DNA of 64,000 nucleotides from a bacterium (GCA_043813955.1 JBDRKN010000020.1:685-64684); one strand, 5' to 3'. Positions 5,249 through 64,000 are shown, counted from the stretch's first letter. Numbers and translations are program-made. The notes: a model not told the origin generated them from the sequence alone.

Positions 5249-5254
5249 ATAAAA

Positions 5255-7074: not shown

Positions 7075-7148
7075 AATTATAAAAAAGTATTAAGATTTTA
7101 AATAAATAATAGCTCATTTTAACAAAAAAATCAAGTCAGGCGGCAATT

Positions 7149-7379: not shown

Positions 7380-7390
7380 CCCCTTTTTTT
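7366..7390 (+). terminator. Intrinsic terminator
   Basis: GGGGC-atacttta-GCCCC followed by T7. Confidence 0.6.
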
Positions 7391-7411
7391 ATTATCTGCT
7401 ATACTATTTAC

Positions 7412-8432: not shown

Positions 8433-8464
8433 AAATGAAAGCAGGCCTTGGGCCTGCTCCTTAA

Positions 8465-9937: not shown

Positions 9938-10093
9938 AAAATATGTTTAATTTGTTATATTATGATTATAGCACAAATTATAGAATAAGAAAGATGTACA
10001 AGTCCATGAACATAATTGACACAAAGCATTTGATATGATTTAATAATATATTATTTAATTAACTAATTTTGCACATTTACAAAGGATTTGAAA

Positions 10094-10633
10094 ATGGAAT
10101 TATCAGAAAGACAAAAAGGACTTCTTAATAAACGCATTATTAAGATATATGGAGAAATTGATGGACATATGGTTGATTATGTGCGTGAATGCCTTGAAAC
10201 ACTAATAATATCCGGCAGCCCCAAAATAACAGTTATATTCTCTAGCTATGGTGGAAACATTATTTCTGGTTTGGCTATCTATGATTTATTAATACTGTAT
10301 AAAGGCAAAATAATAGGAAGGGCTATCAACTTTTGCCATTCAACAGCTATTTTTTGTTTGCAGGCATGCGATGCAAAAGAGGCAAGCCGTCATTCCTCTC
10401 TGCTTGCGCATAATCTTTTGGGCAATAAAGTTAAGTTGGATCTTTTGCTTAATAAAAAAAGGCGGAAGAAGTATATCGCTAATTTAAAAAGACAGCAAAA
10501 ATTAATGAATGATATTTTCCTTAAAAAAACAAAGTTCAAAAATATAGAAGAACTGAAAAAATTTTTGGCTAAAAACAAAGTTATAACCGCCAAGAAAGCA
10601 AAAAAACTAGGTCTTATTGATAAAATTATTTAA
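10094..10633 (+). CDS. ClpP-like (S14 family) protease homologue, divergent
   Basis: Aligned by hand to E. coli ClpP (RIIKIYGEIDGHM..., SSYGGNIISGLAIYD). Ser (CHSTA) and His (LLAHNL) positions are kept; the Asp position appears to be Asn. AAGGA sits 7 nt before the ATG at 10094, and the listed TTG at 10088 has no spacing for an SD. Confidence 0.6.
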   Translation: MELSERQKGLLNKRIIKIYGEIDGHMVDYVRECLETLIISGSPKITVIFSSYGGNIISGLAIYDLLILYKGKIIGRAINFCHSTAIFCLQACDAKEASRHSSLLAHNLLGNKVKLDLLLNKKRRKKYIANLKRQQKLMNDIFLKKTKFKNIEELKKFLAKNKVITAKKAKKLGLIDKII

Positions 10634-10642
10634 GGAGGATTT

Positions 10643-10909
10643 ATGGATATATTAGAATTTGACATCCATGATGTCGGGGAAAAAGATATGAAAACGCTCT
10701 CTATGAAAGAGAGGGGTCAAGCGCCTGTCATTTTTACAAAGGCAAAAATTGACAATAGCAAAATCATGCCTGGCAATATTTTGGAGATTAGGACAGATGA
10801 TGGGATTAAGCCTTATTTAATTAAAAGCGTACATCGGGAGGCTAGCAAAAAAACTAACCAAGATATCAAAAAAGGCAAAGTTTTTGTTTCTGAGCTCAAG
10901 CCTCGTTAA
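10643..10909 (+). CDS. Hypothetical protein (88 aa), probably translationally coupled to the ClpP-like gene
   Basis: Strong SD (AAGGAGG) 5 nt upstream, 9 nt after the previous stop, followed by a terminator. Confidence 0.55.
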   Translation: MDILEFDIHDVGEKDMKTLSMKERGQAPVIFTKAKIDNSKIMPGNILEIRTDDGIKPYLIKSVHREASKKTNQDIKKGKVFVSELKPR

Positions 10910-10913
10910 TAAC

Positions 10914-10944
10914 AAAGCCGGTATTGCAATAGTACCGGCTTTTA
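10914..10944. terminator. Bidirectional intrinsic terminator
   Basis: AAAGCCGGTA-ttgcaatag-TACCGGCTTTT between convergent genes (10909 end, clpB 10959 end). Confidence 0.7.
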
Positions 10945-10958
10945 AAATATCCAAATCA

Positions 10959-13580
10959 TTATTTAACCGCAAGCAAAACCTTGTCTTTTTCCCCTATATT
11001 AATAGTTACATCATCTCCTGCTTTAATCTTGCCTTCAATGATTTCCATGGCTAATTCATCAAGAATCAAATCCTGAATCTTGCGCTTGAGCGGCCTGGCT
11101 CCAAAAGTCTGGTCATAGCCTTTGTCAGCAAGCATGGTTTTAACTTTTTTGCCAATCTTAATGCTTATTTCCTTATTTTTCAAACGTTTTTCCACTTTGA
11201 TTAATTCTAAATCAACAATTTTCATTAAATCCTGCTTATTTAAATTTCTAAAGATGACAATCTCATCTATGCGGTTTAAAAACTCTAATTTAAAATGCTG
11301 GCGCAGAATTTTATCAATCTTTTCCTTTACTTCATCATGGAATATTTGCTTAGTCTGCATCTCATCAGTTGTGTCATAAAACCCTATAGAATACTCCTTG
11401 ATTATTTCATTGCCTAAATTAGATGTCATGATAATAATAGTATTTTTAAAATTAACAGCTCTGCCCTTGGAATCAGTAAGCTGGCCGTCATCTAAAATCT
11501 GCAAAAGAATATTAAATATCTCTGGATGCGCTTTTTCAATTTCATCAAACAATATTACGCTGTAAGGTTTTCTCCTAATTCGCTCTGTAAGCTGGCCTCC
11601 GTCATCATAGCCAACATAGCCTGGGGGCGAACCGATTATCTTTGCCACGCTGTGCTTTTCCATAAATTCGCTCATGTCTAAGCGAATCAAGGCTGATTCG
11701 TCATTAAACATAAATCCTGCTAATACTTTAGCTAATTCAGTTTTGCCAACGCCAGTTGGCCCGACAAAGAAAAAGGATCCAATTGGCTTTTTTTCTTCAT
11801 TAATGCCTGCTCTGGAACGCCGTATAGCATTGGCTATGGCGCTAATAGCATTATCCTGTCCAATAATTTCTTTGCCAAGCTCCTGCTCAATGCGGGCAAG
11901 CTTTTTAATTTCTGATTCAAGCATCTTAGATACTGGGATGCCGGTCCATTTAGCAACTACTATGGCAATATCCTCATCAGTAACTTCTTCTTTTAACAGC
12001 TTTTGGCCCTTGCTCTGGATTTTGTTCAATTCTATTTCATTAGCCTTAATTTGTTTTTCCAGATCAGGTATCTTAGAGTAGCGAATCTCCGCTACCTTGG
12101 TTAAATCATCTCCAGAACGCTGGATTATATCTGCCTCAGCTTTAAATTTGTCAATTTCTTTTTTAGCATTCCTGATTTTTGAAATAATATCTTTTTCATT
12201 CTGCCAATGCAGTTCTAATTGATGAACCTCTTCTTTTATTTTGCCTAATTTTTGATCAATATTGCGCAATTTAACTCCTCCTTCTTTAGCTAAGCCAGCT
12301 TTGGCAATCTCTAGTCTTCTTAATTCATTTTTTAGATTATCAAGTTCTTCAGGAGAGGAATCAATTTCCATGCGCAAAGCAGAGGTTGCTTCATCCATTA
12401 AATCAACTGACTTGTCAGGAAGGAAACGGTCTGAAATATATCTATGCGATAATTTAACAGCAGCTACTAAAGCAGAATCAGTAATCTGTACGCCATGATG
12501 CACTTCGTACTTTTCTTTAATGCCACGCATGATTTCAATAGCATCTTCAACTGTTGGCTCATCAACGTGAATTGGCTGAAAGCGCCTTTCAAGAGCAGAA
12601 TCCTTTTCAATATATTTTTGGTATTCTTTTGTAGTAGTAGCGCCAATAGTAATTATCTCGCCCCTTGCTAGCGCGGGTTTAAGCATATTAGAGGCGTCCA
12701 TAGCGCCCTCAGAGGCTCCTGTGCCTACAATAGTATGCAATTCGTCTATAAATAGGATAATCTTGCCGTCCTGGGATTTAATTTCCTTAAGCACTGCCTT
12801 AAGCCTGTCTTCAAACTCGCCCCTAAACTTAGCCCCGGCTATTAAAGCGCCTAAATCCAAGCTCACAAGCCTTTTATTATATAGGGTTTCAGGTATGTTA
12901 TTTTCTGCAATACGCTGCGCCAAGCCTTCAACAATAGCAGTCTTGCCTGTACCAGCCTCGCCAATTAATACAGGGTTGTTTTTCCTTCGCCTGGACAATA
13001 CTTGCATAATTCGCTTGATTTCATTATCTCTTCCAATAACTGGATCTAGCTTTCCTTTCTTGGCTAAATCAGTAAGGTCATTAGTATATCTTTCCAAAGC
13101 GCGAAATCTGTTTTCAGGGCTCTGGCTGTCTATTTTCTCATTGCCTCGAAGGTCTTTTAAGATAACAATGGTCTGGTCATAATCAAGGCCTAAATGAAAA
13201 AGAATCTGCTGAGCTTTTGACCTTGTTCTAACAATGGATAAAAATAGATGCTCTGCGGAAATAAATTCGTCTTTCATTGTCACAGATTCGCGATTAGCCT
13301 GCTCAATCACATTAGCCATCTCGGCTGTTCCCTGAACCATGCCAACAGATACTTCTACCTGCACCTTTGGAAGTTTTTCAATCTCTAATTCTGCCTTGTT
13401 TCTAACCAAATCAGGATTTATCTTAAATCTTTCTAAAATAGTTCTAACCATGCTCTCTGGCTGTTCAATCAAAGCCACCATTAAGTGCAGGGCATTAATA
13501 TGCTGCTGCCCAAATTCTTGCGCAATAATCTGCGCGTTTATTATTGCTTCTTGAGATTTATGAGTAAATTTGTCTAACAT
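10959..13580 (-). CDS. clpB: ATP-dependent chaperone ClpB
   Basis: 873 aa with a Clp_N domain, two AAA+ modules (GEAGTGKT, GPTGVGKT) and the long coiled-coil middle domain characteristic of ClpB. Confidence 0.95.
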   Translation of the reverse strand: MLDKFTHKSQEAIINAQIIAQEFGQQHINALHLMVALIEQPESMVRTILERFKINPDLVRNKAELEIEKLPKVQVEVSVGMVQGTAEMANVIEQANRESVTMKDEFISAEHLFLSIVRTRSKAQQILFHLGLDYDQTIVILKDLRGNEKIDSQSPENRFRALERYTNDLTDLAKKGKLDPVIGRDNEIKRIMQVLSRRRKNNPVLIGEAGTGKTAIVEGLAQRIAENNIPETLYNKRLVSLDLGALIAGAKFRGEFEDRLKAVLKEIKSQDGKIILFIDELHTIVGTGASEGAMDASNMLKPALARGEIITIGATTTKEYQKYIEKDSALERRFQPIHVDEPTVEDAIEIMRGIKEKYEVHHGVQITDSALVAAVKLSHRYISDRFLPDKSVDLMDEATSALRMEIDSSPEELDNLKNELRRLEIAKAGLAKEGGVKLRNIDQKLGKIKEEVHQLELHWQNEKDIISKIRNAKKEIDKFKAEADIIQRSGDDLTKVAEIRYSKIPDLEKQIKANEIELNKIQSKGQKLLKEEVTDEDIAIVVAKWTGIPVSKMLESEIKKLARIEQELGKEIIGQDNAISAIANAIRRSRAGINEEKKPIGSFFFVGPTGVGKTELAKVLAGFMFNDESALIRLDMSEFMEKHSVAKIIGSPPGYVGYDDGGQLTERIRRKPYSVILFDEIEKAHPEIFNILLQILDDGQLTDSKGRAVNFKNTIIIMTSNLGNEIIKEYSIGFYDTTDEMQTKQIFHDEVKEKIDKILRQHFKLEFLNRIDEIVIFRNLNKQDLMKIVDLELIKVEKRLKNKEISIKIGKKVKTMLADKGYDQTFGARPLKRKIQDLILDELAMEIIEGKIKAGDDVTINIGEKDKVLLAVK

Positions 13581-19055: not shown

Positions 19056-20000
19056 TTATTCTTTTAATGGATGAAATTTTTTCTGTATTTTTTGCGCGTA
19101 AAGATCAGAGGCGTGAACATAACGGGTGGTAGTATCAAGAGATTCATGGCCTAATAAAATTTGAATTGCTACAGGATTGGCCCCAGCTTCAGCTAAATAA
19201 GTAGCAAAACCATGCCGTAAAGAGTGGGCTGAAGTCGGAACATTAATACCCAAAATTTCTCTATATTTTTTTATTTTAAATTGTAGATAATTAGTTGATA
19301 TTTTTTTGTCTTTTATAGGACCAGAATTAAGACCTCGGTAGGGGATAAAGGCAAACACAGAATCATCGCGTCTTATATTTAAATAAGCTCTTAAATGTTT
19401 AAAAGCTCTCGGGGTTAAATAAACAAATCTTTCTTTTTTGCCTTTTCCTAAAACAAAAATGCGTCCATTTTTATCTATCTGGCTTATTTTTAAATTAATT
19501 AATTCAGAGATTCTCATGCCAGTTGAAAACAAAACTTCAAGCATAGCCCTATTGCGCAAGGCTATTCTTTGGTCAGTTTCTAATTCAGAAGGACACTCAA
19601 TTAACTTAACAATTTCCTCTAATTCTGCAACCTGCGGTTTCTTTTTTACAGTTTTTATCATCTTAATAACTTCAGGGGAAAGAGGGGAGTCATAGTCCAT
19701 TTCAATTAAATATTTAAAATAACTTCTTAAAACTGACAGCATCCTATTAACAGAGTAGGCGTCTAATTGTTTTTTGCCTAATTCACGATTAGCTGTTTTT
19801 CTATGGCCAGAAATCAACCAGGCTTTATAATTTAAAATATCTTTTTTAGTCAGCTTGCTAAAGATAATTTTATTTTTTATTAAAAAATCAGAAAAAACCC
19901 TTAAATCACGTTTGTAATTATAAATAGTTGCTGGTGAATAATTATTTACCTTAAGATTTAATAAAAAATCTTCTAATAAAGGCAATGGGTGATTAGCCAT
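19056..20000 (-). CDS. Tyrosine recombinase, XerC/XerD-like
   Basis: SAM-like N-terminal domain plus catalytic motifs (MLEVLFSTGMRISEL, HSLRHGFATYL, LGHESLDTTTRYVH). Confidence 0.85.
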   Translation of the reverse strand: MANHPLPLLEDFLLNLKVNNYSPATIYNYKRDLRVFSDFLIKNKIIFSKLTKKDILNYKAWLISGHRKTANRELGKKQLDAYSVNRMLSVLRSYFKYLIEMDYDSPLSPEVIKMIKTVKKKPQVAELEEIVKLIECPSELETDQRIALRNRAMLEVLFSTGMRISELINLKISQIDKNGRIFVLGKGKKERFVYLTPRAFKHLRAYLNIRRDDSVFAFIPYRGLNSGPIKDKKISTNYLQFKIKKYREILGINVPTSAHSLRHGFATYLAEAGANPVAIQILLGHESLDTTTRYVHASDLYAQKIQKKFHPLKE

Positions 20001-20226
20001 AAATTTATGCTTTAATGAATAATTAAACAGAGTGCTGCTTTTTTTACTTTAAATTAGCCATTTAAATTACTGCGTATAATATCCCTTATACTCAATTATA
20101 GCATAAAATTAAATCTGATGCAAATAATATTACACCTACATTAAAATTTTTCCTCCTATAGGTATGTTGTATCATGAATCATAAAAAATTTTAAACATAG
20201 TCAACGCAGGAATTAAAATTAAAAAC

Positions 20227-53179: not shown

Positions 53180-53196
53180 ATAACAATTTTGTCTAT
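53180..53196. repeat. Target-site duplication, left copy (ATAACAATTTTGTCTAT)
   Basis: An identical 17-mer recurs at 54675-54691, immediately outside the IS termini. Confidence 0.8.
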
Positions 53197-54673
53197 GTCA
53201 AGGCCAAATAGAAATGTCATAGTTGGAGCCATTTAGAAATGTCATACTTGACTAAATTTGTTAATTATTTTTGAACTAAAATTGGCTGTTCTTTTTTCAT
53301 CTTTCCGTATAGAAACTGCCTTCTCCATGGATGATCTATCGGAGGTATATATGAACCCTGTTTTTGTTTCGTTAGAGCTGGCAGTTTAATATTAATTTCC
53401 TTTCTCGGCCTTTCTGGCAGGACAGTGTAATTTAGATAATAATCTCTCAAACGCAACTTTATGGATCCGTCCAAATGTTCTTCAACAATTATCGAATCCT
53501 TTTTGTAAACAGTAGTCGGCTGCTCTCGGTCTAATTGAAAATATCTAGTTTTATACATCACTGTGTAATCATTATGCACTATCCTTTGCTCCTGGACCGA
53601 AAATATCTGCAACAATTTTTCTTTAATTTGTTCACCTAGTTTTTTATGCAGATTCTTTCTCCTTTTTGGCGCAACCGCGAATTTAGCATTAAACTTTGGA
53701 ATGTATTCTATCAGAAACTCATTAGCCTTCTCAGCAGTTGCAATCCCTGCTAATCTCAACTCTTTAACCAATCTATCCTGTAGAGTCTCAAACATTCTCT
53801 CAACCCTGCCCTTAGCCTCTGGGCTATATGCCGTAATTGGTTTAACACCTGCCTGATTCATAGCTCTTTGAAACTGCGTTATCATATCCTTGTTATCTAC
53901 CGCATTTCTATGATTTATCTTGTAAGTGCTGAATTTATCGAGGTATATTGACAATGGCAGCCCATTTTTCTCAAAATACTCTGTCCAGAATTTAAACACC
54001 GCGACTGTACTTTCATTAATATCAAATTTAGCATGAGTTATCTTTCCAGTAGCATCATCAACAGCTAACAACAGACAACTTTCTTCCTCGCCGAACCAAA
54101 TATGATATGAACCGTCAAACTGCTGCATCTCGCCATAGTTGTCTTTCCTGGCTCTCCAGACATGCCATTTCTTTGATTGCTTTCTCAGCTTAACTTTCCA
54201 TAGTCCCAGATTTGTCATAATGCCCCGAACAGTTTCTTTGCCCAACCTTATATTATCTACTTCATCTAATTTTTCAGCAGCAAATGTAGGACCAAAATCA
54301 TAGTATTTATCTTTTAATAATTTCTTTGCTTTTTTGATAATATTTGGGTTTAATTTCCTGTTGCCTGTTTGACCCCTGCCTTTATGGATGAGTCCCTCAG
54401 CTCCGTGTTTAGCTACTTCAGACTTTAACCTCTTAACATGTCTCACAGATACCCCTATTTGTTTAGAAGCGTCTGTGCCGTTAATCCTGCCATCAATTAA
54501 ATTCTTGATAATATCATATCTAGATAGTTCTTTTCTTGACATACATATTAGTTTTTGTGACATAATTTTGTTTAGTTTAATTAATTATATTAACTAAACA
54601 AATTATGGCACAAAAATTAGCAGGTATGACATTTCTAAATGGCTGTACTATGACATTATCATTTGGCTCCGAC
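53197..54673 (-). mobile_element. Complete insertion sequence (1.48 kb): rve-type DDE transposase flanked by 53-54-bp imperfect terminal inverted repeats
   Basis: Left end GTCAAGGCCAAATAGAAATGTCATAGTTGGAGCCATTTAGAAATGTCATACTTG (53197-53250). Reverse complement of the right end GTCGGAGCCAAATGATAATGTCATAGTACAGCCATTTAGAAATGTCATACCTG (54621-54673). Each end contains two copies of an AGCCA-N6-AATGTCATA-like site. Flanked by a 17-bp direct repeat. Confidence 0.85.
53265..54563 (-). CDS. Transposase, N-terminal HTH + integrase-core (rve) DDE domain; resembles ISNCY/IS1202-group or IS481-like enzymes
   Basis: YGEMQQFDGSYHIWFG...LLLAVDDATGKI (first D), IYLDKFSTY (second D), SPEAKGRVER (E). The family name comes from memory, not a search. 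Confidence 0.8.
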   Translation of the reverse strand: MSQKLICMSRKELSRYDIIKNLIDGRINGTDASKQIGVSVRHVKRLKSEVAKHGAEGLIHKGRGQTGNRKLNPNIIKKAKKLLKDKYYDFGPTFAAEKLDEVDNIRLGKETVRGIMTNLGLWKVKLRKQSKKWHVWRARKDNYGEMQQFDGSYHIWFGEEESCLLLAVDDATGKITHAKFDINESTVAVFKFWTEYFEKNGLPLSIYLDKFSTYKINHRNAVDNKDMITQFQRAMNQAGVKPITAYSPEAKGRVERMFETLQDRLVKELRLAGIATAEKANEFLIEYIPKFNAKFAVAPKRRKNLHKKLGEQIKEKLLQIFSVQEQRIVHNDYTVMYKTRYFQLDREQPTTVYKKDSIIVEEHLDGSIKLRLRDYYLNYTVLPERPRKEINIKLPALTKQKQGSYIPPIDHPWRRQFLYGKMKKEQPILVQK

Positions 54674-54674
54674 A

Positions 54675-55481: not shown

Positions 55482-56534
55482 CTATTTCTGCCAAATATAT
55501 TTAGCCATCTTCCAGCTATATTTAACAACAATTAACATAATAAAGAGATAAATAACATATTGCAGAATAACAAAAATAACAGCTAATAAATTAATAGTTA
55601 TACCCTGGATTGAAGCATTAATATCATGAACAAAGTTTTTAATAGCCATTTTCCAAGAATCTTTTAGATTATCAACATCAATATATTTATCTTTATAAAT
55701 ATTAATATTGAAATAAGTATAGTCTAAACGATCTAATTGATTGGATTTAGCTATAGTTAAACGATCTAATTGTTCATTAATAGTTATTTTTTCCTGAGTT
55801 AAACGTTCAATAATTTTAATTTTACTATCAATAATTTTAGCCAAACTTTCCACATCTTTAGTCTGTGTAGCTAAATTCATAATTTTATCATAGGCATCAA
55901 TTGCATTTTCTAAAGTTTCCTCAATTGACTGTTTTTTCTTTTCTAGCACCTCAACTTCATTGGTAAAATCATCAATTGTCTGCTTGATAGTGTATGAATT
56001 TTTTGATAGTTCTTTTGGATCAAGATCTTCAATAATATCTAAAATCTCATCTGCATTATCATTCTTAACTTTAAATCTGTAATCACAACTATGGCCGTCT
56101 TGTTTATTGGCATTTTCAAAAATTACGTAGTCCTTTACTTTAAGATCAGATACTATAGCGCAAGTTTCATCTAAATGAGCTGTGTTGATTAAACCATTGT
56201 ACTCAGTTATTTCAAAATCTTCAGCATCATCACCAGTTGCGTGGCCCTGAGGAGGAATAATACCATATGCCGTATTACGTATTGATAGGCTAGTATCGCC
56301 CCAACCGCCCATTTTTTCATCTATGTCGCTAGACTCCATAGACTCCATTGCCATTTCAAAATCATTAAATCCACCCATCCCTTTATTATCAATGTTTGTT
56401 TTCAGAGTAAGAGAATCAAAAGAGCGTCCCACTATATTAAATAAAAAAACAATAACAAAAATAGCCACTATTGCTAAACCAGCCACTTTTAATATAGCAA
56501 TTGGTTTGAATTTAAATTTTTTTAAAAATTCCAT
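55482..56534 (-). CDS. Membrane protein with DUF4349-like architecture (N-terminal TM, coiled coil, C-terminal TM pair)
   Basis: The architecture matches DUF4349 as I remember it; sequence-level assignment was not verified. Confidence 0.45.
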   Translation of the reverse strand: MEFLKKFKFKPIAILKVAGLAIVAIFVIVFLFNIVGRSFDSLTLKTNIDNKGMGGFNDFEMAMESMESSDIDEKMGGWGDTSLSIRNTAYGIIPPQGHATGDDAEDFEITEYNGLINTAHLDETCAIVSDLKVKDYVIFENANKQDGHSCDYRFKVKNDNADEILDIIEDLDPKELSKNSYTIKQTIDDFTNEVEVLEKKKQSIEETLENAIDAYDKIMNLATQTKDVESLAKIIDSKIKIIERLTQEKITINEQLDRLTIAKSNQLDRLDYTYFNINIYKDKYIDVDNLKDSWKMAIKNFVHDINASIQGITINLLAVIFVILQYVIYLFIMLIVVKYSWKMAKYIWQK

Positions 56535-56655
56535 AAGTTTTTAATTAAAAATAATTTTATATGATAATTATAGCACTTTTAAAATAACAAAAAAAGATGC
56601 TTACTATTAGATTAGAACTACATAATAAAAAGCCATAAAATTAGATCCATGAAAA

Positions 56656-56730
56656 GGGAAAAATATTTTAGATTTTGTCTTCATCTTAAAAACTAAAGCA
56701 ACTGGAGCCGCTCCCATATGGTGTGGGTTC
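56656..56730 (+). repeat. Box+hairpin module, solo copy 1 (degenerate hairpin)
   Basis: GGGAAAAATATTTTAGATTTTG (56656-56677), CTTCATCT..AACTAAAG (56679-56698, pairing partly lost), ACTGGAGCCGCTCCC, GGTGTGGGTT. Lies 58 nt downstream of the stop of gene 56788..57180. Confidence 0.75.
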
Positions 56731-56787
56731 ATATATAACTGATTTAACATTTTTATTAATAGTTACAGTAGTTGACAATTATTTTAT

Positions 56788-57180
56788 TTATACAAAATTT
56801 GCATCATCTAAAATTTCTATTACATATTTATGCATTTTTATTAAAGTTTTTTTAGTATATTTAACATGAGCTTGAGCTTGTTTCATAACATTTTTATCTC
56901 CATCAACAAGTTGGGAACTAAAAGTATATGTTACATATCCGTACTTCTGCCCTCGATAATCTGCACGATCCAGTAATTGTTGTATTGCTTCATCATCCTT
57001 GAATTTTTTTCTATTCTTTTTTATTAATCTGTACGTGAAGGGATTAATACTTGCCTCAACTATTGCAAAAATTCTACTGACCTTATCATCTAAAATTCTT
57101 GTTTCAATACATAATCGTATTTCTGAATATGGCCCAGTCCCTCCCCATAATCCATCTCTTTGTTTTTGTGTTATTTCCAT
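56788..57180 (-). CDS. Hypothetical protein (130 aa)
   Basis: ORF only; no family recognised. Confidence 0.5.
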   Translation of the reverse strand: MEITQKQRDGLWGGTGPYSEIRLCIETRILDDKVSRIFAIVEASINPFTYRLIKKNRKKFKDDEAIQQLLDRADYRGQKYGYVTYTFSSQLVDGDKNVMKQAQAHVKYTKKTLIKMHKYVIEILDDANFV

Positions 57181-57383
57181 AAAATAGCTTATTTTAATAT
57201 AAAGTCAGCATTTTTTATTTGAGGTAATAAGTGAGGCCGTCTATTGTGTTGTTGGCATTTGGTAGTGCATGAGAATGGATGGTGGCGGAAAATATTACCA
57301 AAAAATTGAAGTACACTTTTTATATTATTTATTATTTTATTTCTAGCGGCAGAGATTCTTTTATAAACTGTTCTATGTCTTCT

Positions 57384-57584
57384 CTAACTAAAAGCCTTGA
57401 TAAATTTACGTTCTTTATAACAATAAGAAGTAACAGTTCTGCCTCTGGCTAGAAAATTAGCAAAACCCAAATAATCAAACCTAATAGTATTATTCACATT
57501 TAGATCTTTTAACTTATGATATAGATTGCTGCCATCTATATATATGGCAACTCTCTTGTTTTTCTTATTATCTTTTTGTTCCAT
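57384..57584 (-). pseudogene. Truncated NYN/LabA-like domain gene (N-terminal ~66 aa only)
   Basis: From the ATG at 57584: MEQKDNKKNKRVAIYIDGSNLYHKLKDL..., stopping far short of the ~170 aa of the intact paralogue at 61338..61853. The part of the listed ORF upstream of 57584 runs through a hairpin plus T-run. Confidence 0.55.
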
Positions 57585-57590
57585 AGTTTG

Positions 57591-57628
57591 AAAAAACCCA
57601 CTGTGCCCCCTCGCGGGAACAGAGTGGG
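57591..57628 (-). terminator. GC-rich hairpin + T6 in the leader of the truncated NYN gene
   Basis: On the minus strand: CCCACTCTG-N14-CACAGTGGG (one mismatch; the loop has an inner CCC/GGG stem) followed by TTTTTT, ending 6 nt before the ATG. Confidence 0.5.
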
Positions 57629-57924
57629 TGGTTTTAGCAAAACAATGGATAACTACTATAAACAACAGTTTCAGTGAATAAATTATAGTATACTATTTAA
57701 ATAAAAAATGTCAATAGTTATCCACAACTATAACTATTATATCATTTTTAAAACATTAAGTAAAAAATTGTTCATGTACAAGATGAGCACATAGTATTGA
57801 CATAAATTTATCATTATACACTATCATGGCTGACAAAAAACAACAAAAAAATATTAAAAAATGGCGATTTGGTTAATGTTAATGCAACTCATAGAAGAGC
57901 TATTATTCTTAAATTGGTAATAAA

Positions 57925-59715
57925 TTAACTAGCCTTAAAAGCCCGCTTTCTGTCATTTTCAGTTAAGTGCTGTTTTCTTAGACGAATACTCTTGGGAGTA
58001 ATTTCCAAATATTCATCACCACTCATAATACTCATACCACTCTCTAAAGTTAATTCCATGGGTGGTGTTAAACGAATAGCTTCATCAGCGCCTGAGGAGC
58101 GCATATTAGTCAACTGCTTACCTTTAATAGGGTTAACTACTAAATCATTACCTTTGGCTACATTGCCAATAACCATACCTTCATATACCTCTGTATTAGC
58201 GGTCACATAAAGAATTCCTCTGTCTTGTAGATTAAAAAGAGAAAAACCAAGTGCCTTGCCAGCAACCATAGAAATCATAGAACCAACCTCACTCTTTTCA
58301 ATCTCACCAGCATAAGGCCTAAAATCAATAACTCGATTATAAAGAATACCTTGGCCACGTGTGTTGACCACAAATTCATTACGATAACCCAATAAACCAC
58401 GAGTAGGAATTTCAAAAATAATTTTAACGTCACCGTGCTCTAGCTTCATTTCAACCATATTACCGCGACGTTTGGCTAATTTTTCAATCACTATGCCAGA
58501 CATTGTTTCAGGAACAATAACTGTCACCTCTTCAAAGGGTTCTAGTTTAGTGCCATCTTCTTCTTTAATAATAACCTGAGGCTGAGAAACTTGCATTTCA
58601 TAGCCCTCACGTCTCATATTTTCTAAAAGAATAGCAATATGCATTTCACCGCGGCCATAAACCTTACAATAATCAACATTAGAAAAATCAATCTTTAAGC
58701 CAACATTAATTTCCAATTCTTTTTCTAATCTTTCTTTAATCTGACGATTAGTAATAAATTTACCTTCTTTACCAGCAAGGGGTGAATTATTAACTAAAAA
58801 ATTCAAAGAAATAGTTGGCTCATCAATACTAATAGCTGGCAAAGCCTCTTGCTCAGCATTAGCACAAATAGTTTCACCAATATAGATATTAGGCAAACCA
58901 GCTATCATAATAATATCACCAGCCCCTGCTTCAGTAACTTCTTTTCTAGTTAATCCGTCAAAGGTAAATATTTTAGTAATTTTACCAGCCCTATTACCGC
59001 CTTGAGCATCTTTAATAATTACATTCTCACCTGCTTTAATTAAGCCTTCATAGATTCTGCCAATAGCTAAACGACCCAAAAAATTATCATAACCTAAATT
59101 AAACGGCTGGACACGTAAAGGCTGATTACAAGCCTCTTCACTAGAAGCAACTGGGACTTCTGCTAAAATAGTATCTAATAGCGGAGTTAAATCTTTAAAT
59201 TCATCATCTAAGTTAGCCTTGGCCACCCCCTCGCGAGCAATAGTATAAATAGTAGTAAAATCAAGCTGTTCGTCATTAGCGCCTAGATCAAGGAATAATT
59301 CATAAATCATTTCACTGACTTCATCAGGTCTAGCAGCTGGCTTATCAATCTTGTTAATCACAACAATTGGTTTTAATCCTAAATCTAATGATTTTTTTAA
59401 AACAAACTTAGTCTGGGGCATAGGACCTTCTTGAGCGTCAACTACTAACAAGACTGAATCAATAGAACGCAAAACACGTTCTACTTCTGAGCCAAAATCA
59501 GCATGACCTGGCGTATCAACAATATTAATCTTATTATCTTGATAATAGACTGAGGTATTTTTTGAATAAATAGTAATACCACGCTCCTGTTCTAGAACGT
59601 TATTATCCATACTGTCACCCTCGCTAGACATGCCTGTTTGACGCATCAAAGAATCAGTTAAAGTAGTTTTGCCATGATCAACATGAGCAATAATTGCAAT
59701 GTTTCTGATTTTCAT
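57925..59715 (-). CDS. typA: Translational GTPase TypA/BipA
   Basis: MKIRNIAIIAHVDHGKTTL, DTPGHADFG, NKID. Start at the ATG at 59715; the listed ORF has 32 extra upstream codons. Confidence 0.9.
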   Translation of the reverse strand: MKIRNIAIIAHVDHGKTTLTDSLMRQTGMSSEGDSMDNNVLEQERGITIYSKNTSVYYQDNKINIVDTPGHADFGSEVERVLRSIDSVLLVVDAQEGPMPQTKFVLKKSLDLGLKPIVVINKIDKPAARPDEVSEMIYELFLDLGANDEQLDFTTIYTIAREGVAKANLDDEFKDLTPLLDTILAEVPVASSEEACNQPLRVQPFNLGYDNFLGRLAIGRIYEGLIKAGENVIIKDAQGGNRAGKITKIFTFDGLTRKEVTEAGAGDIIMIAGLPNIYIGETICANAEQEALPAISIDEPTISLNFLVNNSPLAGKEGKFITNRQIKERLEKELEINVGLKIDFSNVDYCKVYGRGEMHIAILLENMRREGYEMQVSQPQVIIKEEDGTKLEPFEEVTVIVPETMSGIVIEKLAKRRGNMVEMKLEHGDVKIIFEIPTRGLLGYRNEFVVNTRGQGILYNRVIDFRPYAGEIEKSEVGSMISMVAGKALGFSLFNLQDRGILYVTANTEVYEGMVIGNVAKGNDLVVNPIKGKQLTNMRSSGADEAIRLTPPMELTLESGMSIMSGDEYLEITPKSIRLRKQHLTENDRKRAFKAS

Positions 59716-59906
59716 AAAAAAATTAAAACCGCCTAAATAGCGGGCAAATAAATAATAAATTATCTTTAATTTACGTAAATACAATATAATACATTTATTA
59801 TCTAATGTCAAGAGTGTAACTATTGTAACTGTTGCAGAGTTAATGTTACTTTTTTTCAGGAATTATACAAAGTGCAATTAAACAACAAAAAACACCAAAT
59901 TAATGT

Positions 59907-60299
59907 CTATTTACAAAAAGTATAATCTATATAATTTTCTCGAATTATTTTTTTCCATGTGGCTGTTTCGTTATTCCCGCCAATATCATCTTTATGATAG
60001 ACAAGTAATATTTTAATTTCCCTGATTTTTTTATGTGCAGCTATAATACAGCGATTTCCTGATTTTTTTCTAGAATACTTAGTCCCTGCAATACGAAATT
60101 CTGTCTTGCAAATAGAAATATCATTTATGCAAACGATTTCATCGGCTATGCCTGTTTCTAATAATGCATCAAGGCGTTTTAACTCCTCTATGATACCTTG
60201 CCATGTTTTGTCCCAAAAACTTTTATATTTTTTCTGAAATTTTTTTATATAATGACGTTCAGCGTATTTTTCTGTAATAACAACATAATTAGTAGACAT
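59907..60299 (-). CDS. Putative toxin partner of the Panacea-domain protein (130 aa; RelE-superfamily-like C-terminal pattern)
   Basis: Overlaps the upstream HTH-Panacea gene by 11 nt. The KTEFRIAGTKYSRKKSGNRCIIAAHKKIREIKILLVYHKDD pattern resembles RelE/HigB-type toxins. Weak; assessed by eye. Confidence 0.4.
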   Translation of the reverse strand: MSTNYVVITEKYAERHYIKKFQKKYKSFWDKTWQGIIEELKRLDALLETGIADEIVCINDISICKTEFRIAGTKYSRKKSGNRCIIAAHKKIREIKILLVYHKDDIGGNNETATWKKIIRENYIDYTFCK

Positions 60300-60978
60300 A
60301 AGCGGGATCTTCTTGGATTATAAGCTCATATGGGATAACCTCATCTAAAGCGCATAAACGATATGGCAATTGTTCGTGTGTAAAATCAACTATTTCTTGT
60401 GTTTTTTTATTTTTCCATTTTTTTGCTATTTGCTTTATGAGGTATTTTTCTTCTTTTGAGAGTTTATTTAATTGTCTTCGCTTTGAGCCTTCGCCTTCCC
60501 TAATCAAAATTATACCGTCATTGCTTCGGTCTATGTTTACCTTGCCTTGTTCTTCTAATTCATCTAAAGCACGGAAGTATGAATCTGGCACAGGACCATA
60601 TTTAATTCGTTTGTACTGCATGCCACTCATACTTTGCATTTTTTCATAAAACCATGCAAAATCAGCAAGATATAATAATTTTGCTAATTTAGTTTTAGGT
60701 ATTTTACCATCGCTATTTGAACTAGCAACGCGTAAATAGGCAAGCAGCATTTCTTTATATTTTTCATAATCTGGTGCTACACCTGTTTCCATATCTTTCA
60801 AACTAATACCAAAAATATCAGAGAGTTTTTGTGCCTCTGATAGCAACAATTCTCTCTTACCTTGTTCAACAGCAATATATGATGTGCGAGAAATCCCTAG
60901 TTTATGAGCGATTTCCTGCTGGGATATTCCTTTTTGCACACGTAAAGATTTTATAAATTGTATATATGTTTTAATCAT
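60289..60978 (-). CDS. XRE-family HTH fused to a DUF4065 (Panacea/SocA-like) antitoxin domain
   Basis: N-terminus LRVQKGISQQEIAHKLGISRTSYIAVEQGKRE (HTH_3/XRE). C-terminus KTKLAKLLYLADFAWFYEKMQSMSGMQYKRIKYGPVP (DUF4065 signature). Its promoter TTGACA-17-TATAGT overlaps the inverted repeat TGTCA-N7-TGACA. Confidence 0.75.
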   Translation of the reverse strand: MIKTYIQFIKSLRVQKGISQQEIAHKLGISRTSYIAVEQGKRELLLSEAQKLSDIFGISLKDMETGVAPDYEKYKEMLLAYLRVASSNSDGKIPKTKLAKLLYLADFAWFYEKMQSMSGMQYKRIKYGPVPDSYFRALDELEEQGKVNIDRSNDGIILIREGEGSKRRQLNKLSKEEKYLIKQIAKKWKNKKTQEIVDFTHEQLPYRLCALDEVIPYELIIQEDPAYVY

Positions 60979-61084
60979 AGATAATTACTTAATTGCTTAA
61001 CTAATTATACTATACTACACCATAATATACTTGTCAATAATACTGACATGTAATTATACGCAATAATGACATAAATTTAGGTAT

Positions 61085-61125
61085 AAAAAATCCCTGCTTT
61101 TCTCATTGTGAGATAAAACAGGGAT
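61085..61125 (-). terminator. Strong intrinsic terminator on the minus strand, downstream of the NYN gene and module copy 2
   Basis: On the minus strand: ATCCCTG-ttttatctcacaatgagaaaag-CAGGGAT followed by T6, with inner pairing TCTC/GAGA. Confidence 0.65.
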
Positions 61126-61136
61126 AAAGTGTCATC

Positions 61137-61192
61137 TGTGGGCAAAAATGTTTTAAATTTTGTCTTTAGCTTGAGAGCTAAAGTAAACTGGG
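61137..61192 (+). repeat. Box+hairpin module, solo copy 2 (TGTGGG-type box, compensated hairpin)
   Basis: TGTGGGCAAAAATGTTTTAAATTTTG (61137-61162), CTTTAGCT-tgag-AGCTAAAG (61164-61183), TAAACTGG. Confidence 0.8.
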
Positions 61193-61337
61193 AATAATTC
61201 TATTATAAGATAGAAATGATAGAATGCGGTTAACTATGGTTAAGACTAGCCCTTGACTTATTTATTGTTTTGGTATACAATATAAATATTAAGACGAAAA
61301 GGGTCCCTGAAGTCGTAAAAAACTGATGGCCCCCTTT

Positions 61338-61853
61338 TTATTTATATTCAATTAAATGTTTTATATTAATGAGGTAATCAAAGAATTTCCTCGTTATTTT
61401 TTTATAAAGAGAAGAAGCAAATTCTTTATTTGGGAATAATATCTTTTCAAATTTATCTTCTTTAATTAAAAAATCTACTAACATTCTATAATCACCATCA
61501 CCAGATACAAGAACAATTTTATGAAATTGTTCTTTGTAATATAATTTTTTCATTATTGTAAAAATAATATCAGAATCCACATTACCTTTTTTCTTTCCTA
61601 ACATTTTAGTATTATGTTCTCTAAATTTTAAAATAAAACCAGCAGCTTGAATTTCATCATAAAGTTCTTCATTTATTTCATTCATATATCCTAAAAAATA
61701 ATAAGCTTTATCTACTTGATATTTTTTAGATAAATAATTACGGAACTTAACTAAATCAACTCTCCATGTAGGTTTATTAGATCTAATTCCCATGTATAAA
61801 TTTTGCCCATCAATAAATGCTAAATTATTTTGCTCATCATTATTTCTTACCAT
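61338..61853 (-). CDS. NYN/LabA-like (PIN-like) RNase domain protein
   Basis: LAFIDGQNLYMGI near the N-terminus, NVDSDI, and VLVSGDGDY: the conserved acidic residues of NYN domains. 171 aa. Confidence 0.75.
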   Translation of the reverse strand: MVRNNDEQNNLAFIDGQNLYMGIRSNKPTWRVDLVKFRNYLSKKYQVDKAYYFLGYMNEINEELYDEIQAAGFILKFREHNTKMLGKKKGNVDSDIIFTIMKKLYYKEQFHKIVLVSGDGDYRMLVDFLIKEDKFEKILFPNKEFASSLYKKITRKFFDYLINIKHLIEYK

Positions 61854-62003
61854 AAAACTATCTATTTTATTTATAACTTTATATTAGATTAAAACAACAA
61901 AAAATACCAATTCAAAATTAGTATTTCTTAAAAAGATTGGCTCGAACCGAATTTTGCGGGAACGGGAAGTGAGCTTGAGCTTTATTAAACCCTTTAAAAT
62001 ATT

Positions 62004-62316
62004 GGTTGAGATGGCGCGTAGTTTTAATGGAGTTTACCCTACGCACGTGGCGCGTGCCGTTCTGCTCTCAACCTTGGATAAAATCCGAACCTATTTCGCG
62101 ACCAACACGGATATCTAAGTTAAATCCCACTCCGCGTCTCCAGTTCACCGCAAAGTCTTGCGGTGTGCAAAATCTAAAACATTTTTACCCACAGATTTTT
62201 TATTTATTCTTGGGGCGCGCTTTTTTTATTAAGGAAAGGGAAAAATATTTTAGATTTTGTCTTTAGTTTAAGAACTAAAGTAAACTGGATACGCTCCCGC
62301 CAGCGTTGGTGGGGTT
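62004..62316. repeat. GC-rich composite element A (~313 nt): long minus-facing arm + 47-nt spacer + plus-facing arm; candidate structured RNA/recombination site
   Basis: Boxes at 62168-62190 (read on +: CAAAATCTAAAACATTTTTACCC) and 62238-62259 (GGGAAAAATATTTTAGATTTTG). Hairpins at 62146-62165 and 62261-62280. Paralogue of 62843-63170. Confidence 0.8.
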
Positions 62317-62380
62317 GATTTAAATTGACTTATGTTAAATATGCTTTTCCAATAAACACTAAATACAGAATTGTTTGAGT

Positions 62381-62418
62381 AAATAAAAGACCTGACTATT
62401 CTGCCAGGCCAAAAAAAA
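62381..62418 (-). terminator. Intrinsic terminator of gene 62433..62711
   Basis: On the minus strand: GGCCTG-gcagaatagt-CAGGTC followed by TTTTATTT. One pair is G-U on the minus transcript but an A-C mismatch on the plus strand, which favours minus-strand function. Confidence 0.55.
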
Positions 62419-62432
62419 TTAAAATAGTTATA

Positions 62433-62711
62433 CTATCCATGCTCGAAACCGTAAACATTAAATCGCTTTATCATTGCCTCTTTTCCTTTTTTAATAAAAC
62501 TTTCCTTAACATCATCATTCATTGAAACAAAAGCTGTTAATTTACAACTCTTGCCATTGTTATCAATATGTGAGTCCATTGTGTCATAGATAGTCAACAT
62601 TCCAATACCAGAATATCCAATCTTATGACCAGAAAATACTACATGTAATTCCATCTCTCGAGAAAAAGATAATTTAAACTCAGAAATAGATATTATTACT
62701 TCTACTTTCAT
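62433..62711 (-). CDS. Hypothetical protein (92 aa from the ATG at 62711)
   Basis: A minus-strand promoter TTGACA (62781-62776)-17-TATCAT (62758-62753) would start transcription downstream of the listed ATG at 62762. The ATG at 62711 (MKVEVII) has AAGGG 7 nt upstream. Confidence 0.5.
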   Translation of the reverse strand: MKVEVIISISEFKLSFSREMELHVVFSGHKIGYSGIGMLTIYDTMDSHIDNNGKSCKLTAFVSMNDDVKESFIKKGKEAMIKRFNVYGFEHG

Positions 62712-62842
62712 TTTATTACCCTTTTTAATGATACAATTTAATTTCTGACTCAATGATATCATATTTCAATAATTATGTCAATACTAACAAAAAATACTAA
62801 CAAAAAATAACTAAATTTAGCTATTTTTTGTAAATATTCTCA

Positions 62843-63170
62843 GCCCCTTTGAAATACTCCCCGAAAGGGTGGCGCGTCCTTGTCTGCTCTCAACCTTGGA
62901 TAAAATTCGAACCTATTTCGCGACCAACACGGACAAATGAGCCAGGCTGCCCTCGGCGGGCAGTTGCCCACCCAGCTCCTCTAGTCCACCGCAAAGCATT
63001 GCGGTGTGCAAAATCTAAAATATTTTTACCCACAGATTTTTTATTTATTTTTTGGGCGCGCTTTTTTATTAAGGAAAGGGAAAAATGTTTTAGATTTTGT
63101 CTTTAGTTTAAGAACTAAAGTACTGGAGACACTCTGACGGGGGGTGCGGTAGGAGGCGGTTGGTGGGGTT
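62843..63170. repeat. GC-rich composite element B (~328 nt), paralogue of element A
   Basis: Boxes at 63009-63031 and 63078-63099; hairpins at 62987-63006 and 63101-63120. Three near-identical blocks are shared with A; the inserts and tails are unrelated. Confidence 0.8.
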
Positions 63171-63193
63171 ATAATATCACATCAAAACAAAGG

Positions 63194-63898
63194 TTAATTT
63201 GCTAAAAATTCTTTTGCTTTATCTAAATCTTGCCGAAAATTGCTTACGTTAGTAAAAACTGAATCAGATGATTTTAAATAAGAAATAAACTTGGAAAAAT
63301 TTTCAATATTCATAGAAAATAAATGGATATATTCCTGAAATATATCCATTGTATTATCTGGAAGCTCCCTCTCATACTCGTATTTATCTGAAACACGAAA
63401 TTCTCTATTACATTTATCTAACTCCCTCTCAAGCTTCTTTAAAAAATGTTCATATACTTGTACATCTATTTTGTTTTTTTCTTTTAACTTTAGATATGAT
63501 GTTGCCATAAAAGCATAATTAAATACCTCTGCTTTATGGCCTCCATTAAAAATTTTTCCATCTCTTTTGTTATGAATAATCGGATTTAAAAAAGCATGAT
63601 GGGTTTCATGAAATAAACATCCCCACAAATTTTTCGGATATTCTCTTTGAATATTTCTATTGTAGATTCCCATTTTAACGATATGGTAATTGCCTTCAAC
63701 TCTATATGATGCGCTACCTGTCGAATCGTCTAATTTTATATTTATTTGATCATAATCCCATACTTGACCAAAAATTTCTTCAATGATTGGAAAAGCAACC
63801 TCATCAATACAATCAAGGTATTCTTTCAGTTTTTTCACCGCTTCAGTATGCTCTGAAAATTCCGCTATATTTTCAATAATATAGTGTTTTGTTTGCAT
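63194..63898 (-). CDS. Hypothetical protein with HExxH motif (putative zinc metallopeptidase)
   Basis: LFHETHHAF at about aa 96-104; no further family assignment. The start is only 38 nt from the 3' end of tRNA-Gln. Confidence 0.5.
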   Translation of the reverse strand: MQTKHYIIENIAEFSEHTEAVKKLKEYLDCIDEVAFPIIEEIFGQVWDYDQINIKLDDSTGSASYRVEGNYHIVKMGIYNRNIQREYPKNLWGCLFHETHHAFLNPIIHNKRDGKIFNGGHKAEVFNYAFMATSYLKLKEKNKIDVQVYEHFLKKLERELDKCNREFRVSDKYEYERELPDNTMDIFQEYIHLFSMNIENFSKFISYLKSSDSVFTNVSNFRQDLDKAKEFLAN

Positions 63899-63936
63899 AA
63901 AATTTTATTTTGATATTTTAATTTGTATCTTATGTG

Positions 63937-64000
63937 CTCGGGGACAGGGATTTGAACCCCGATTCTCAGGACCAGAACCTGATGTCCTACCATTAGACGA
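63937..64000 (-). tRNA. tRNA-Gln (anticodon CUG), 5' ~8 nt cut off by the window end; no encoded CCA
   Basis: Reverse complement: TCGTCTAATGGTAGGACATCAGGTTCTGGTCCTGAGAATCGGGGTTCAAATCCCTGTCCCCGAG. D arm GTCT/GGAC, anticodon stem TCAGG/CCTGA with loop TTCTGGT, T arm CGGGG-TTCAAAT-CCCTG. Confidence 0.8.

Follow-up and report, generated by a model that had tools for sequence, protein, structure and literature searches.

We analysed a 64,000-nucleotide (nt) stretch of bacterial DNA (GCA_043813955.1, JBDRKN010000020.1:685-64684; hereafter the window), whose last 7.5 kb contain an array of single accessory genes set between copies of a conserved inverted repeat, the box. The window is ordinary chromosome of a Patescibacteria (Candidate Phyla Radiation, CPR) bacterium, with genes for aminoacyl-tRNA synthetases and ribosomal proteins, rpoA, and glycosyltransferase and polysaccharide genes. 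The genomes of CPR bacteria are tiny, and the routes by which accessory genes are acquired and exchanged in this group are little understood. The array locus adjoins typA and a tRNA-Gln gene and holds three minus-strand genes, which code for an NYN-domain protein, a 92-amino-acid (aa) orphan and an HExxH protein; a 130-aa orphan gene lies beside a solo copy of the repeat (Table 1). An earlier reading of the bare sequence, here called the original prediction, had proposed the coordinates of these genes, and the positions of open reading frames (ORFs) agreed with them, as did a Pfam match for the NYN gene. The tRNA-Gln that it had placed next to the array was recovered with Rfam as a truncated copy with a CUG anticodon loop; because the copy is truncated by the window end, ARAGORN misses it.

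A clustered box repeat

Six copies of the box, each followed by a hairpin and the motif ACTGGA, had been described, with none elsewhere in the window. We scanned the window for the pattern GGGNAAAAATRTTTTARATTTTG, allowing up to three mismatches, and obtained exactly six matches, where 0.03 are expected; none of 100 shuffled sequences gave six. A profile hidden Markov model (HMM) of the 61-nt core (box, hairpin and ACTGGA) returned the same six copies with E values of 7e-15 to 8e-13 and no seventh copy in the window, the next-best match having an E value of 0.19. Both methods reproduced the number of copies and their restriction to the last 7.5 kb of the window. The boxes span 6.4 kb of the 64 kb (P ~6e-5 under uniform placement) and leave the first 56.5 kb without a copy. 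Hairpin and ACTGGA follow the boxes as described, except for a degenerate hairpin at 56655.

Two kinds of 5' flank occur among the boxes, ATCTGTGGGY (type 1) and GRAAAGGGA, in line with the flanks ATCTGTGGG and GGAAAGGG noted earlier. Inverted pairs, among them those listed earlier, were also found: 61134-61162 and 62168-62196 form a pair of 29 nt with 93% complementarity, a second 29-nt pair (I4) reaches 90%, and the pairs 62168-62189/62238-62259 and 63009-63030/63078-63099 extend over 22 nt at 91% each. The two latter pairs face each other across a spacer that was claimed to be a conserved 47 nt, which is correct for one junction (47 nt) but not for the other (46 nt). A bulged A had been drawn in the arms of the resulting palindromes; it is better described as an in-register substitution, GGGT versus AGGG.

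Anatomy of arms and junctions

Each box forms the core of a modular inverted arm, and the arms make up a lineage-specific family. The arms are built from an AT-rich core of ~30 bp, an 8-bp hairpin and the motif ACTGGAG(A/T)AYGC, and they come in two kinds. P arms, which have a short tail, run from the box through the hairpin CTTTAGY/RCTAAAG and ACTGGAKAYGC to a second, terminator-like hairpin (e.g. 62295-62314). M arms run from a box with a ATCTGTGGGT flank through the hairpin CACCGCAA/TTGCGGTG and ACTGGAGACGCGG into a conserved tail of ~130 nt; the two window tails are 92% identical (62047-62111 vs 62869-62933). The box, the hairpin and the ~135-bp palindromes of the original prediction are real, but the repeated unit is larger than was claimed. 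Because the minus-facing copies carry these additional conserved tails, the actual units are two composite junctions of ~290 bp (J1, 62047-62325, and J2, 62869-63175) and two solo arms, one a partly decayed P arm (56655) and the other a hybrid arm (61140).

The arms face inward around single genes (NYN, 92-aa orphan, HExxH), and neighbouring units abut head to head, which produces the ~135-bp junction palindromes. Site orientation therefore alternates along the array (+ - + - +, from 61140 to 63077). Two P arms are convergent with neighbouring genes, the solo arm with the 3' end of the 130-aa orphan gene and that of J2 with the HExxH gene, and the hybrid arm lies downstream of the NYN gene. 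AT-rich hairpins followed by U-runs close the M tails ahead of the next gene; the M arm of J2 is closed by an AT-rich palindrome at 62793-62838. Short ORF stubs can be read through the tails. On the plus strand, the M tail of J1 holds an ORF stub that begins at 62047 and ends in LLSTLDKIRTYFATNTDI before a stop codon at 62116-62118, and that of J2 ends in LLSTLDKIRTYFATNTDK with a stop at 62938-62940. The antisense strand of the J1 P arm reads GAYPVYFSS followed by a stop.

Several other roles were rejected. The plus-strand ORFs of 85-86 aa across the junctions are not genes, as their frame differs between the two copies. Reading the box as coding sequence (GKN(I/V)LDF, sense strand) fails since the frames are not kept among copies and type-2 arms have no start codon, and no acceptable -35/-10 pair supports a sigma-70 promoter in the box. 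As a separate observation, five of the seven plus-strand occurrences of GGCGCG in the window fall inside the array (62013, 62049, 62214, 62871 and 63055); the motif marks the inner boundary of both M tails (GTGGCGCGT) and the centre of both junction spacers (GGGCGCGC), and it is absent from the related contig described below.

Judging by consensus promoter and terminator matches, which fall between modules and cargo, the cargo genes look self-contained, and at least one of them in the window, the 92-aa orphan, appears to have its own strong consensus promoter and terminator. The matches are clearest at this gene, where a promoter-like site at 62781-62753 combines TTGACA, a 17-nt spacer and a TG-extended TATCAT (11 of 12 consensus positions), with a terminator-like site at 62410-62389. 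All taxon-identifying names that the sources give for the 54 homologues of the HExxH protein are Patescibacteria; in this family H97, E98 and H101 are invariant and E124 is nearly so. A confident AlphaFold2 model of the protein (predicted local distance difference test score 93.6) shows weak likeness to the catalytic domains of the gluzincins M1/LTA4H (template modelling score 0.5-0.57, E ~0.01-0.1).

A relative with the same arms and different genes

Using typA as an anchor to reach the corresponding neighbourhoods of relatives, we found homologous arm elements 1.9-3.9 kb from typA on one 9.1-kb contig (L021) from the Logan assembly of run ERR15087771. The TypA of the window is 100% identical to a protein from an NCBI metagenome-assembled genome; that of L021 is the next-best match, with 82% amino-acid identity, and the window and L021 are sisters in a neighbour-joining tree of 120 TypA proteins. 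The M arm with its tail was detected by profile HMM with E about 1e-40 to 2e-40, and a type-1 box with E 4e-6. The cargo at L021 consists of Fic, a 95-aa orphan and a MarR-like gene, and none of these proteins is similar to the window's NYN, 92-aa orphan and HExxH proteins. Here, too, promoter-like sites (8938-8911, 7718-7690 and 7085-7057) are present, and terminator-like sites (7778-7749, 7122-7091 and 9011-8994) separate arms from cargo. The description of unrelated, one-strand single genes delimited by a conserved imperfect palindrome of inverted arms was accurate for the window and is strengthened by L021. A comparison of relatives for presence or absence of individual units had also been proposed; the same arms beside unrelated genes near typA come close to such a unit-level difference.

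The box is ~100% identical and the M tail ~85% identical between the window and L021, in which TypA differs by 18%, and purifying selection or recent transfer must therefore be at work; box and tail appear too conserved for neutral DNA. At 7900-7960 of L021, the box of a junction is present as a perfect inverted repeat only in its 15-nt inner half (CCAAAATCTAAAATA/TATTTTAGATTTTGG). These half-boxes flank a 23-nt segment that bears the type-1 flank, and were the segment flipped, the M arm rather than the other arm would carry the full box.

Beyond these two loci the family was not encountered. The exact box gave only single chance matches, lacking hairpin or ACTGGA, in 185,579 species-representative genomes and the Joint Genome Institute (JGI) metagenomes; three patterns returned nothing from IMG/VR, and BLAST of a junction against plasmids and phages gave no match. 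Six other typA neighbourhoods (L019/L020, L022, L031/L032, L033 and L034) have no arms. Some of the armless neighbourhoods hold restriction-modification genes, OLD-type genes or an integrated serine-recombinase element, and this varied content marks the region as a general hotspot of gene turnover. In the sequences compared, the arms are specific to the lineage pair of the window and L021, unlike the hotspot itself. The repeat family is real and undescribed, is restricted to a lineage, and brackets accessory genes in a variable locus; in the sister lineage it is conserved although the cargo has been replaced completely.

Table 1. Positions of arms, spacers, cargo genes and associated features in the window and in contig L021
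Sequence	Feature	Position	Strand	Details
Window	Box pattern matches	56655-56677, 61140-61162, 62237-62259, 63077-63099	+	Pattern scan
Window	Box pattern matches	62168-62190, 63009-63031	-	Pattern scan
Window	Solo P arm	56649-56735	+	Box 56656-56677, decayed hairpin 1, ACTGGAG 56701-56707, hairpin 2 56713-56727
Window	130-aa orphan cargo gene, beside solo arm	56788-57180	-	No family match
Window	Hybrid arm	61134-61195	+	Type-1 left flank ATCTGTGGGC, box 61140-61162, P-type hairpin CTTTAGC/GCTAAAG 61164-61183, ACTGGG 61187-61192
Window	NYN-domain (PIN-like RNase) cargo gene	61338-61853	-	PF01936, 1.2e-14
Window	AT-rich hairpin then U-run	61894-61923	-	Terminator-like, closes M tail before NYN; identified by eye, unflagged by the scan
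Window	M arm of J1	62047-62196	-	Box 62168-62190, flank ACAGAT 62191-62196, hairpin CACCGCAA/TTGCGGTG 62146-62165, CTCCAGT 62138-62144, tail 62047-62137
Window	J1 spacer between boxes	62191-62237 (47 nt; remainder 62197-62237)		AT-rich, contains GGGGCGCGC
Window	P arm of J1	62238-62325	+	Box 62238-62259, hairpin 62261-62280, ACTGGAT 62284-62290, terminator-like hairpin 2 62295-62314
Window	92-aa orphan cargo gene	62433-62711	-	ORF
Window	M arm of J2	62869-63037	-	Box 63009-63031, hairpin 62987-63006, extra variable hairpin CUGCCC/GGGCAG, tail 62869-62986
Window	J2 spacer between boxes	63032-63077 (46 nt; remainder 63038-63077)		Contains GGGCGCGC
Window	P arm of J2	63078-63175	+	Box 63078-63099, hairpin 63101-63120, ACTGGAG 63122-63128, G-rich tail
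Window	HExxH (zincin-like) cargo gene	63194-63898	-	ORF; 54-member protein family
Window	tRNA-Gln (CUG), cut by window end, bounds array	63937-64000	-	Rfam
L021	M arm and tail			Followed by strong terminator 7778-7749, then promoter of the 95-aa gene
L021	Type-1 box (Rp1)			No hairpin; faces 3' end of the Fic gene
L021	P arm			Followed by terminator 9011-8994, then 12/12-consensus promoter of Fic
L021	M-tail fragment and terminator			Upstream of the MarR-like gene

A tentative reading as recombination sites

We favour, tentatively, the interpretation that the arms are DNA end or recombination sites delimiting exchangeable single-gene modules. The enzyme acting on them in trans would be a recombinase or transposase whose gene lies elsewhere, and the modules would be exchanged within the variable tRNA-Gln-typA locus; recombination or transposition at the arms is what we infer. 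The core can be written as a weakly dyad-symmetric site of ~30 bp whose 7-nt centre, RTTTTAR, is flanked on the left by AAAGGGAAAAAT or GTGGGYAAAAAT and on the right by ATTTTGTCTTT or ATTTTGCACAC. Within a type, the left and right halves agree at 9-10 of 13 positions, against 7 of 13 across types, a difference that is statistically weak with two genomes, and two of the three variable box positions are the end positions of the RTTTTAR centre. The parts of the arms occur in reshuffled combinations at the box: the type-1 flank is joined to the M hairpin (62190, 63031), to the P hairpin (61140) or, in Rp1 of L021, to no hairpin. Such combinations of a type-1 left half with a P or other right half (61140, Rp1) are expected if crossovers occur in the box. 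Dyad symmetry and hybrid arms together are only suggestive of a recombination site. The clustering of the copies, their conservation in L021 around other cargo, the self-contained look of the cargo genes, the strong single-strand fold of the junction (given below), a conservation too high for neutral DNA and the lack of a match to described RNA families also count in favour of this interpretation.

A number of findings weigh against recombination at the arms. Target-site duplications are absent from the flanks of every pair in the window sequence, and domain scans detected no recombinase or transposase beside the array or the L021 locus. Three of the six window arms start AAAGGG and not TGTGGG, so that the TG terminus emphasised by the original prediction applies to three copies and fails for the other three. 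Conservation runs far past any plausible protein site into the tails, and the boundaries of cargo replacement between the window and L021 lie inside the tails and not at the box. The tails also end in terminator-like hairpins on the gene strand, and their hairpins contain G.U pairs that favour one strand; both features look more like function at the RNA level. At eight loci of HExxH homologues in other Patescibacteria (L023-L030) the arms are absent. Finally, the family is present in two genomes only, which makes the covariation and dyad arguments statistically weak.

If the arms are sites of recombination or transposition, they would represent a novel site type and a compact cassette platform for toxin- or defence-type genes in CPR bacteria. 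The module model lends itself to direct testing, given a core of ~30 bp, a small array and two natural variants with different cargo. A bolder version, which we regard as unlikely, proposes an unprecedented Patescibacteria recombination system in which a ~30-bp dyad core with a 7-nt overlap region and an accessory hairpin plus ACTGGAG serve to assemble and shuffle toxin or defence modules of one gene each at one fixed place in the chromosome. The gene for its enzyme, which could be a Xer-like recombinase or some unrecognised protein, would lie elsewhere, and the system would join integrons and dif modules as a third type of cassette platform.

Comparison with dif modules and transposon derivatives

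As working analogies for such sites, the dif modules of Acinetobacter and mobile insertion cassettes (MICs) appear closest. The dif (pdif) modules of Acinetobacter plasmids carry accessory genes, often toxin-antitoxin or other adaptive genes, with their own expression signals between inverted sites of ~28-30 bp (PMC10132070). The array resembles them in having one or few accessory genes with their own expression signals between inverted sites of this length, and in the alternating orientation of the sites around self-contained genes. As in dif modules, no dedicated recombinase lies beside the modules, and an enzyme would therefore act in trans. The array nevertheless differs in several respects: the 28-bp XerC-spacer-XerD site of pdif is not found in it, the box has no XerC/XerD-type arms (CATAA-N6-TTATG), and adjacent modules are separated by two sites and a 46-47-nt spacer instead of one common site. 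Array sites have in addition a hairpin, an ACTGGAG motif and long conserved tails, and they lie on a chromosome of Patescibacteria.

The box is unlike the dif-like site that the window itself contains. A single match to RYATAA-N6-TTATRY is present in the window, at 20074-20091 beside a xer-like gene and outside the array; the surrounding candidate chromosomal dif site, ACTGCGTATAA-TATCCC-TTATACTCAAT (20069-20096), is the only one in the window, and 69 bp separate it from the start codon of the Xer-like gene (19056-20000, minus strand). A dif/Xer model for the box was rejected since this lone site shares no arm with it. GC skew could not be used to locate the replication terminus, because it simply tracks gene strand here. 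A model based on oriC and DnaA boxes was also discarded: DnaA-like 9-mers are spread over the window (27 vs 17.9 expected), with only two in the array. The type-1 flank does contain TTACCCACA, which differs from a DnaA box at a single position.

MICs, transporter insertion sequences and miniature inverted-repeat transposable elements (MITEs) share with the array the presence of inverted terminal repeats, here the two 29-nt pairs at 93% (61134-61162/62168-62196) and 90%, and a conserved subterminal sequence around a passenger gene without a transposase; the possible ORF stubs at the ends recall deletion derivatives. The ends of TnsB/IS1202-type elements start with TGT (PMC10132070), as do three of the six window ends. 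In contrast to such elements, the array has no target-site duplication, half of its ends lack the TG tip, and its copies are gathered in one locus and not dispersed. Between the flanks of 61134 and those of 62196 or 63037 we found no duplication, an apparent ATC/GAT match being discounted because it is part of the inverted repeat; the original prediction had been right on this point. No autonomous element with such ends was found, and no copy of the module surrounds a transposase in the window, in L021 or at the other loci examined.

The original prediction had also seen no adjacent recombinase, and indeed the only tyrosine recombinase of the window is the Xer-like protein and the only nearby transposase an IS1202-family enzyme at 53265-54563 (minus strand; NCBIfam ISNCY_2, 378 bits). 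The latter belongs to an intact insertion sequence of 1,479 bp (53196-54674) with TGTC...GACA ends, imperfect inverted repeats of ~27 bp and a second, internal core copy near each end, flanked by a 16-bp target duplication, ATAACAATTTTGTCTA (53180-53195/54675-54690). For the IS1202-family subgroup with target duplications longer than 15 bp, no target was found by PMC10132070; the element in the window sits directly upstream of a TTGACT promoter. It was rejected as the source of the arms, its inverted repeats (TGTCAAGGCCAAATAGAAATGTCATAG) being unrelated to the box, and a 9-nt overlap (ATTTTGTCT) between its target duplication and a P arm is most likely chance. The statement that neither an integron nor a mini-transposon fits cleanly is borne out by the attC cores, the promoter of at least one cargo gene, the target duplications, the TG tips, the unrelated ends of the insertion sequence and the separate dif-like site of the Xer-like recombinase.

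Alternative explanations

The junctions could instead be selfish or structural palindromes in the 3' untranslated regions (UTRs) of accessory genes, of the kind known as REPINs (doublets of repetitive extragenic palindromic, REP, sequences), bacterial interspersed mosaic elements (BIMEs) or Correia elements, and not ends of mobile units. They would then act at the level of RNA or DNA topology, for example in mRNA 3'-end protection, as RNase III sites or in insulation, and the intervening genes would differ only through the general turnover hotspot. We judge this somewhat unlikely. The layout does recall REPIN/BIME and Correia/NEMIS elements, with short palindromic units of two sequence types set in inverted orientation on either side of a short linker, an intergenic position at gene 3' ends, a strong hairpin or cruciform in single-stranded form and an association with regions of gene turnover. 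When folded as a single strand, a junction adopts a four-way structure (-40 kcal/mol, z -7.9) that includes two side hairpins and a loop of ~47 nt. Terminator scans flagged nothing between the stop codon of the HExxH gene and J2, nor between that of Fic and the L021 junction, and the HExxH and Fic transcripts would therefore cross the junction to the next terminator. The absence of both target duplications and an adjacent enzyme, and the variable defence genes or serine-recombinase element that other typA neighbourhoods hold without arms, would also suit this explanation.

Other properties speak against a REPIN-like origin. All six copies are clustered in 7.5 kb of the 64 kb, with no genome-wide dispersal visible in the window, and the exact box, chance matches aside, was absent from the species-representative genomes and JGI metagenomes searched. 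No REP-associated tyrosine (RAYT/Y1) transposase is encoded among the window ORFs. The box, at 22-23 nt, is far longer than the GTAG head of REP sequences. REP families are usually species-specific, whereas the box is identical in deeply diverged lineages with TypA proteins only 82% identical. Moreover, the two boxes of a junction show no co-variation that would keep them paired; the R position differs between them in both junctions.

Alternatively, the arms might be small non-coding or cis-acting RNAs read from the module-sense strand, such as 3'-UTR-derived small RNAs that are processed from the upstream transcript at the junction hairpin and end at the terminator closing the tail. Gene-strand terminator-like hairpins do close tails, both at the three L021 sites given above and at 62295-62314 of the window, and the sense strands fold more stably than the antisense strands (-37.5/-26.9, -56.6/-40.8 and -41.3/-19.8 kcal/mol). 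Hairpin 2 of the P arm is kept with three different sequences, its G.U pairs occur on the sense strand only, and hairpin 1 has one compensatory change, U-A to C-G. However, promoter-like sites precede no arm in scans of the window and L021, shuffling gave z-scores of only about -1 to -2, RNAalifold showed no pair changed on both sides, and the M hairpin of L021 has a broken pair. The substitutions in the M tail fit coding on the opposite strand better, and Rfam returned no match other than tRNAs at E up to 1 for window positions 56000-64000 and L021. On balance, an RNA element is quite unlikely. Were the arms structural palindromes or RNAs, they would still form an undescribed conserved non-coding family that marks variable loci.

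The coding-like pattern in the tails raises a further explanation, in which they are 3'-end remnants of two convergent ancestral genes (ending in GAYPVYFSS and LSTLDKIRTYFATNTDI) with a shared intergenic palindrome, spread by local segmental duplication amid new gene insertions and either functionless or coding for micro-peptides. Antisense, the M tails read LLSTL(D/N)KIRTYFATNTD(I/K) before a stop, and five of the seven codons that differ between the window and L021 are synonymous, among them Leu UUG/CUG and Arg CGA/AGA (simulation P 0.021); all other frames contain stops. In GAYPVYFSS of the P arms, all three differences are synonymous third-position changes, the stop codon is common, and a 3-nt indel is in frame. 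Copies within a genome also share genome-specific inner boundaries. Yet parent proteins were not found: neither 5.8 billion clusters nor 1.84 billion representatives contain proteins with the stub C-termini, the sole match being a spurious repeat protein, and Pfam gave nothing for the stubs. P stubs lack start codons, ribosome-binding sites are not visible, and functionless remnants would not hold ~85-100% identity over such a distance between lineages. Remnant genes would also leave the near-invariant box and the inward-facing pairs unexplained, and we find this origin distinctly improbable. The stubs may be gene relics of an ancestral element, micro-ORFs or coincidence.

An integron-type cassette array, whether an integrase-less attC cluster (CALIN) or an array whose integrase lies just outside the window, is a highly improbable explanation of the locus. 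The architecture seen by the original prediction holds in so far as unrelated, mostly orphan or toxin-like single genes on one strand are each trailed by an imperfect palindrome of ~135 bp in one polarity, as in sedentary chromosomal integrons with their homogeneous, species-specific palindromes of ~120-140 bp (e.g. the Vibrio cholerae repeats), and the source contig is ~5 kb longer than the window; attC cores are absent, and no integron integrase was found in the window. In attC sites, the cores R'' RYYYAAC and R' GTTRRRY flank an imperfect palindrome that folds into a bulged hairpin of 57-141 nt with extrahelical bases, whereas the best candidates in the box, ATCTAAA and TTTAGAT by eye, lack the AAC/GTT triplet. 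The fold of the junction, a four-way structure in place of a simple bulged hairpin, speaks less clearly on this point. The array palindrome consists of two independently occurring arms with internal hairpins, of which solo copies exist, and the P arm upstream of Fic in L021 has the opposite polarity. At least one window cargo gene and the three L021 cargo genes appear to have strong consensus promoters of their own. The sole tyrosine recombinase of the window, the Xer-like protein, scores 84.5 bits against the 265-bit cutoff of the integron integrase model TIGR02249.

Further observations around the locus

The 3' end of the tRNA-Gln has no att-like repeat elsewhere in the window. On the relative contig L031, an element of ~8 kb (3622-11000) lies beside typA and a tRNA-Gln(TTG), with genes for a large serine recombinase and for Rep-like, trypsin-like and HEPN/Toprim proteins, and contig L034 (3430-3710) has the uninterrupted arrangement of the same site. 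Comparison of the two marks the typA flank as an integration hotspot in this group.

The accessory-type genes of the window comprise the NYN RNase, an NYN fragment, a helix-turn-helix (HTH) plus SocA/Panacea antitoxin-type gene with a 130-aa partner, two orphans and the HExxH gene. The fragment, a truncated ORF at 57384-57587 (minus strand), covers no more of the domain than its N-terminal 40-50 residues (Pfam E 0.0025) and is probably a pseudogene; a perfect 12-bp GC-rich hairpin at ~57600-57632 precedes it. The antitoxin-type gene forms a two-gene, toxin-antitoxin-like unit at 59907-60978 (minus strand), in which an HTH_3 plus SocA/Panacea protein of 229 aa overlaps the 130-aa partner, which has no family match; the unit is situated between typA and the array and lacks arms. 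A protein encoded at the other end of the window (833-2218, plus strand) combines Schlafen/AlbA_2 and HATPase_c_4 domains, an architecture that is frequent in defence contexts.

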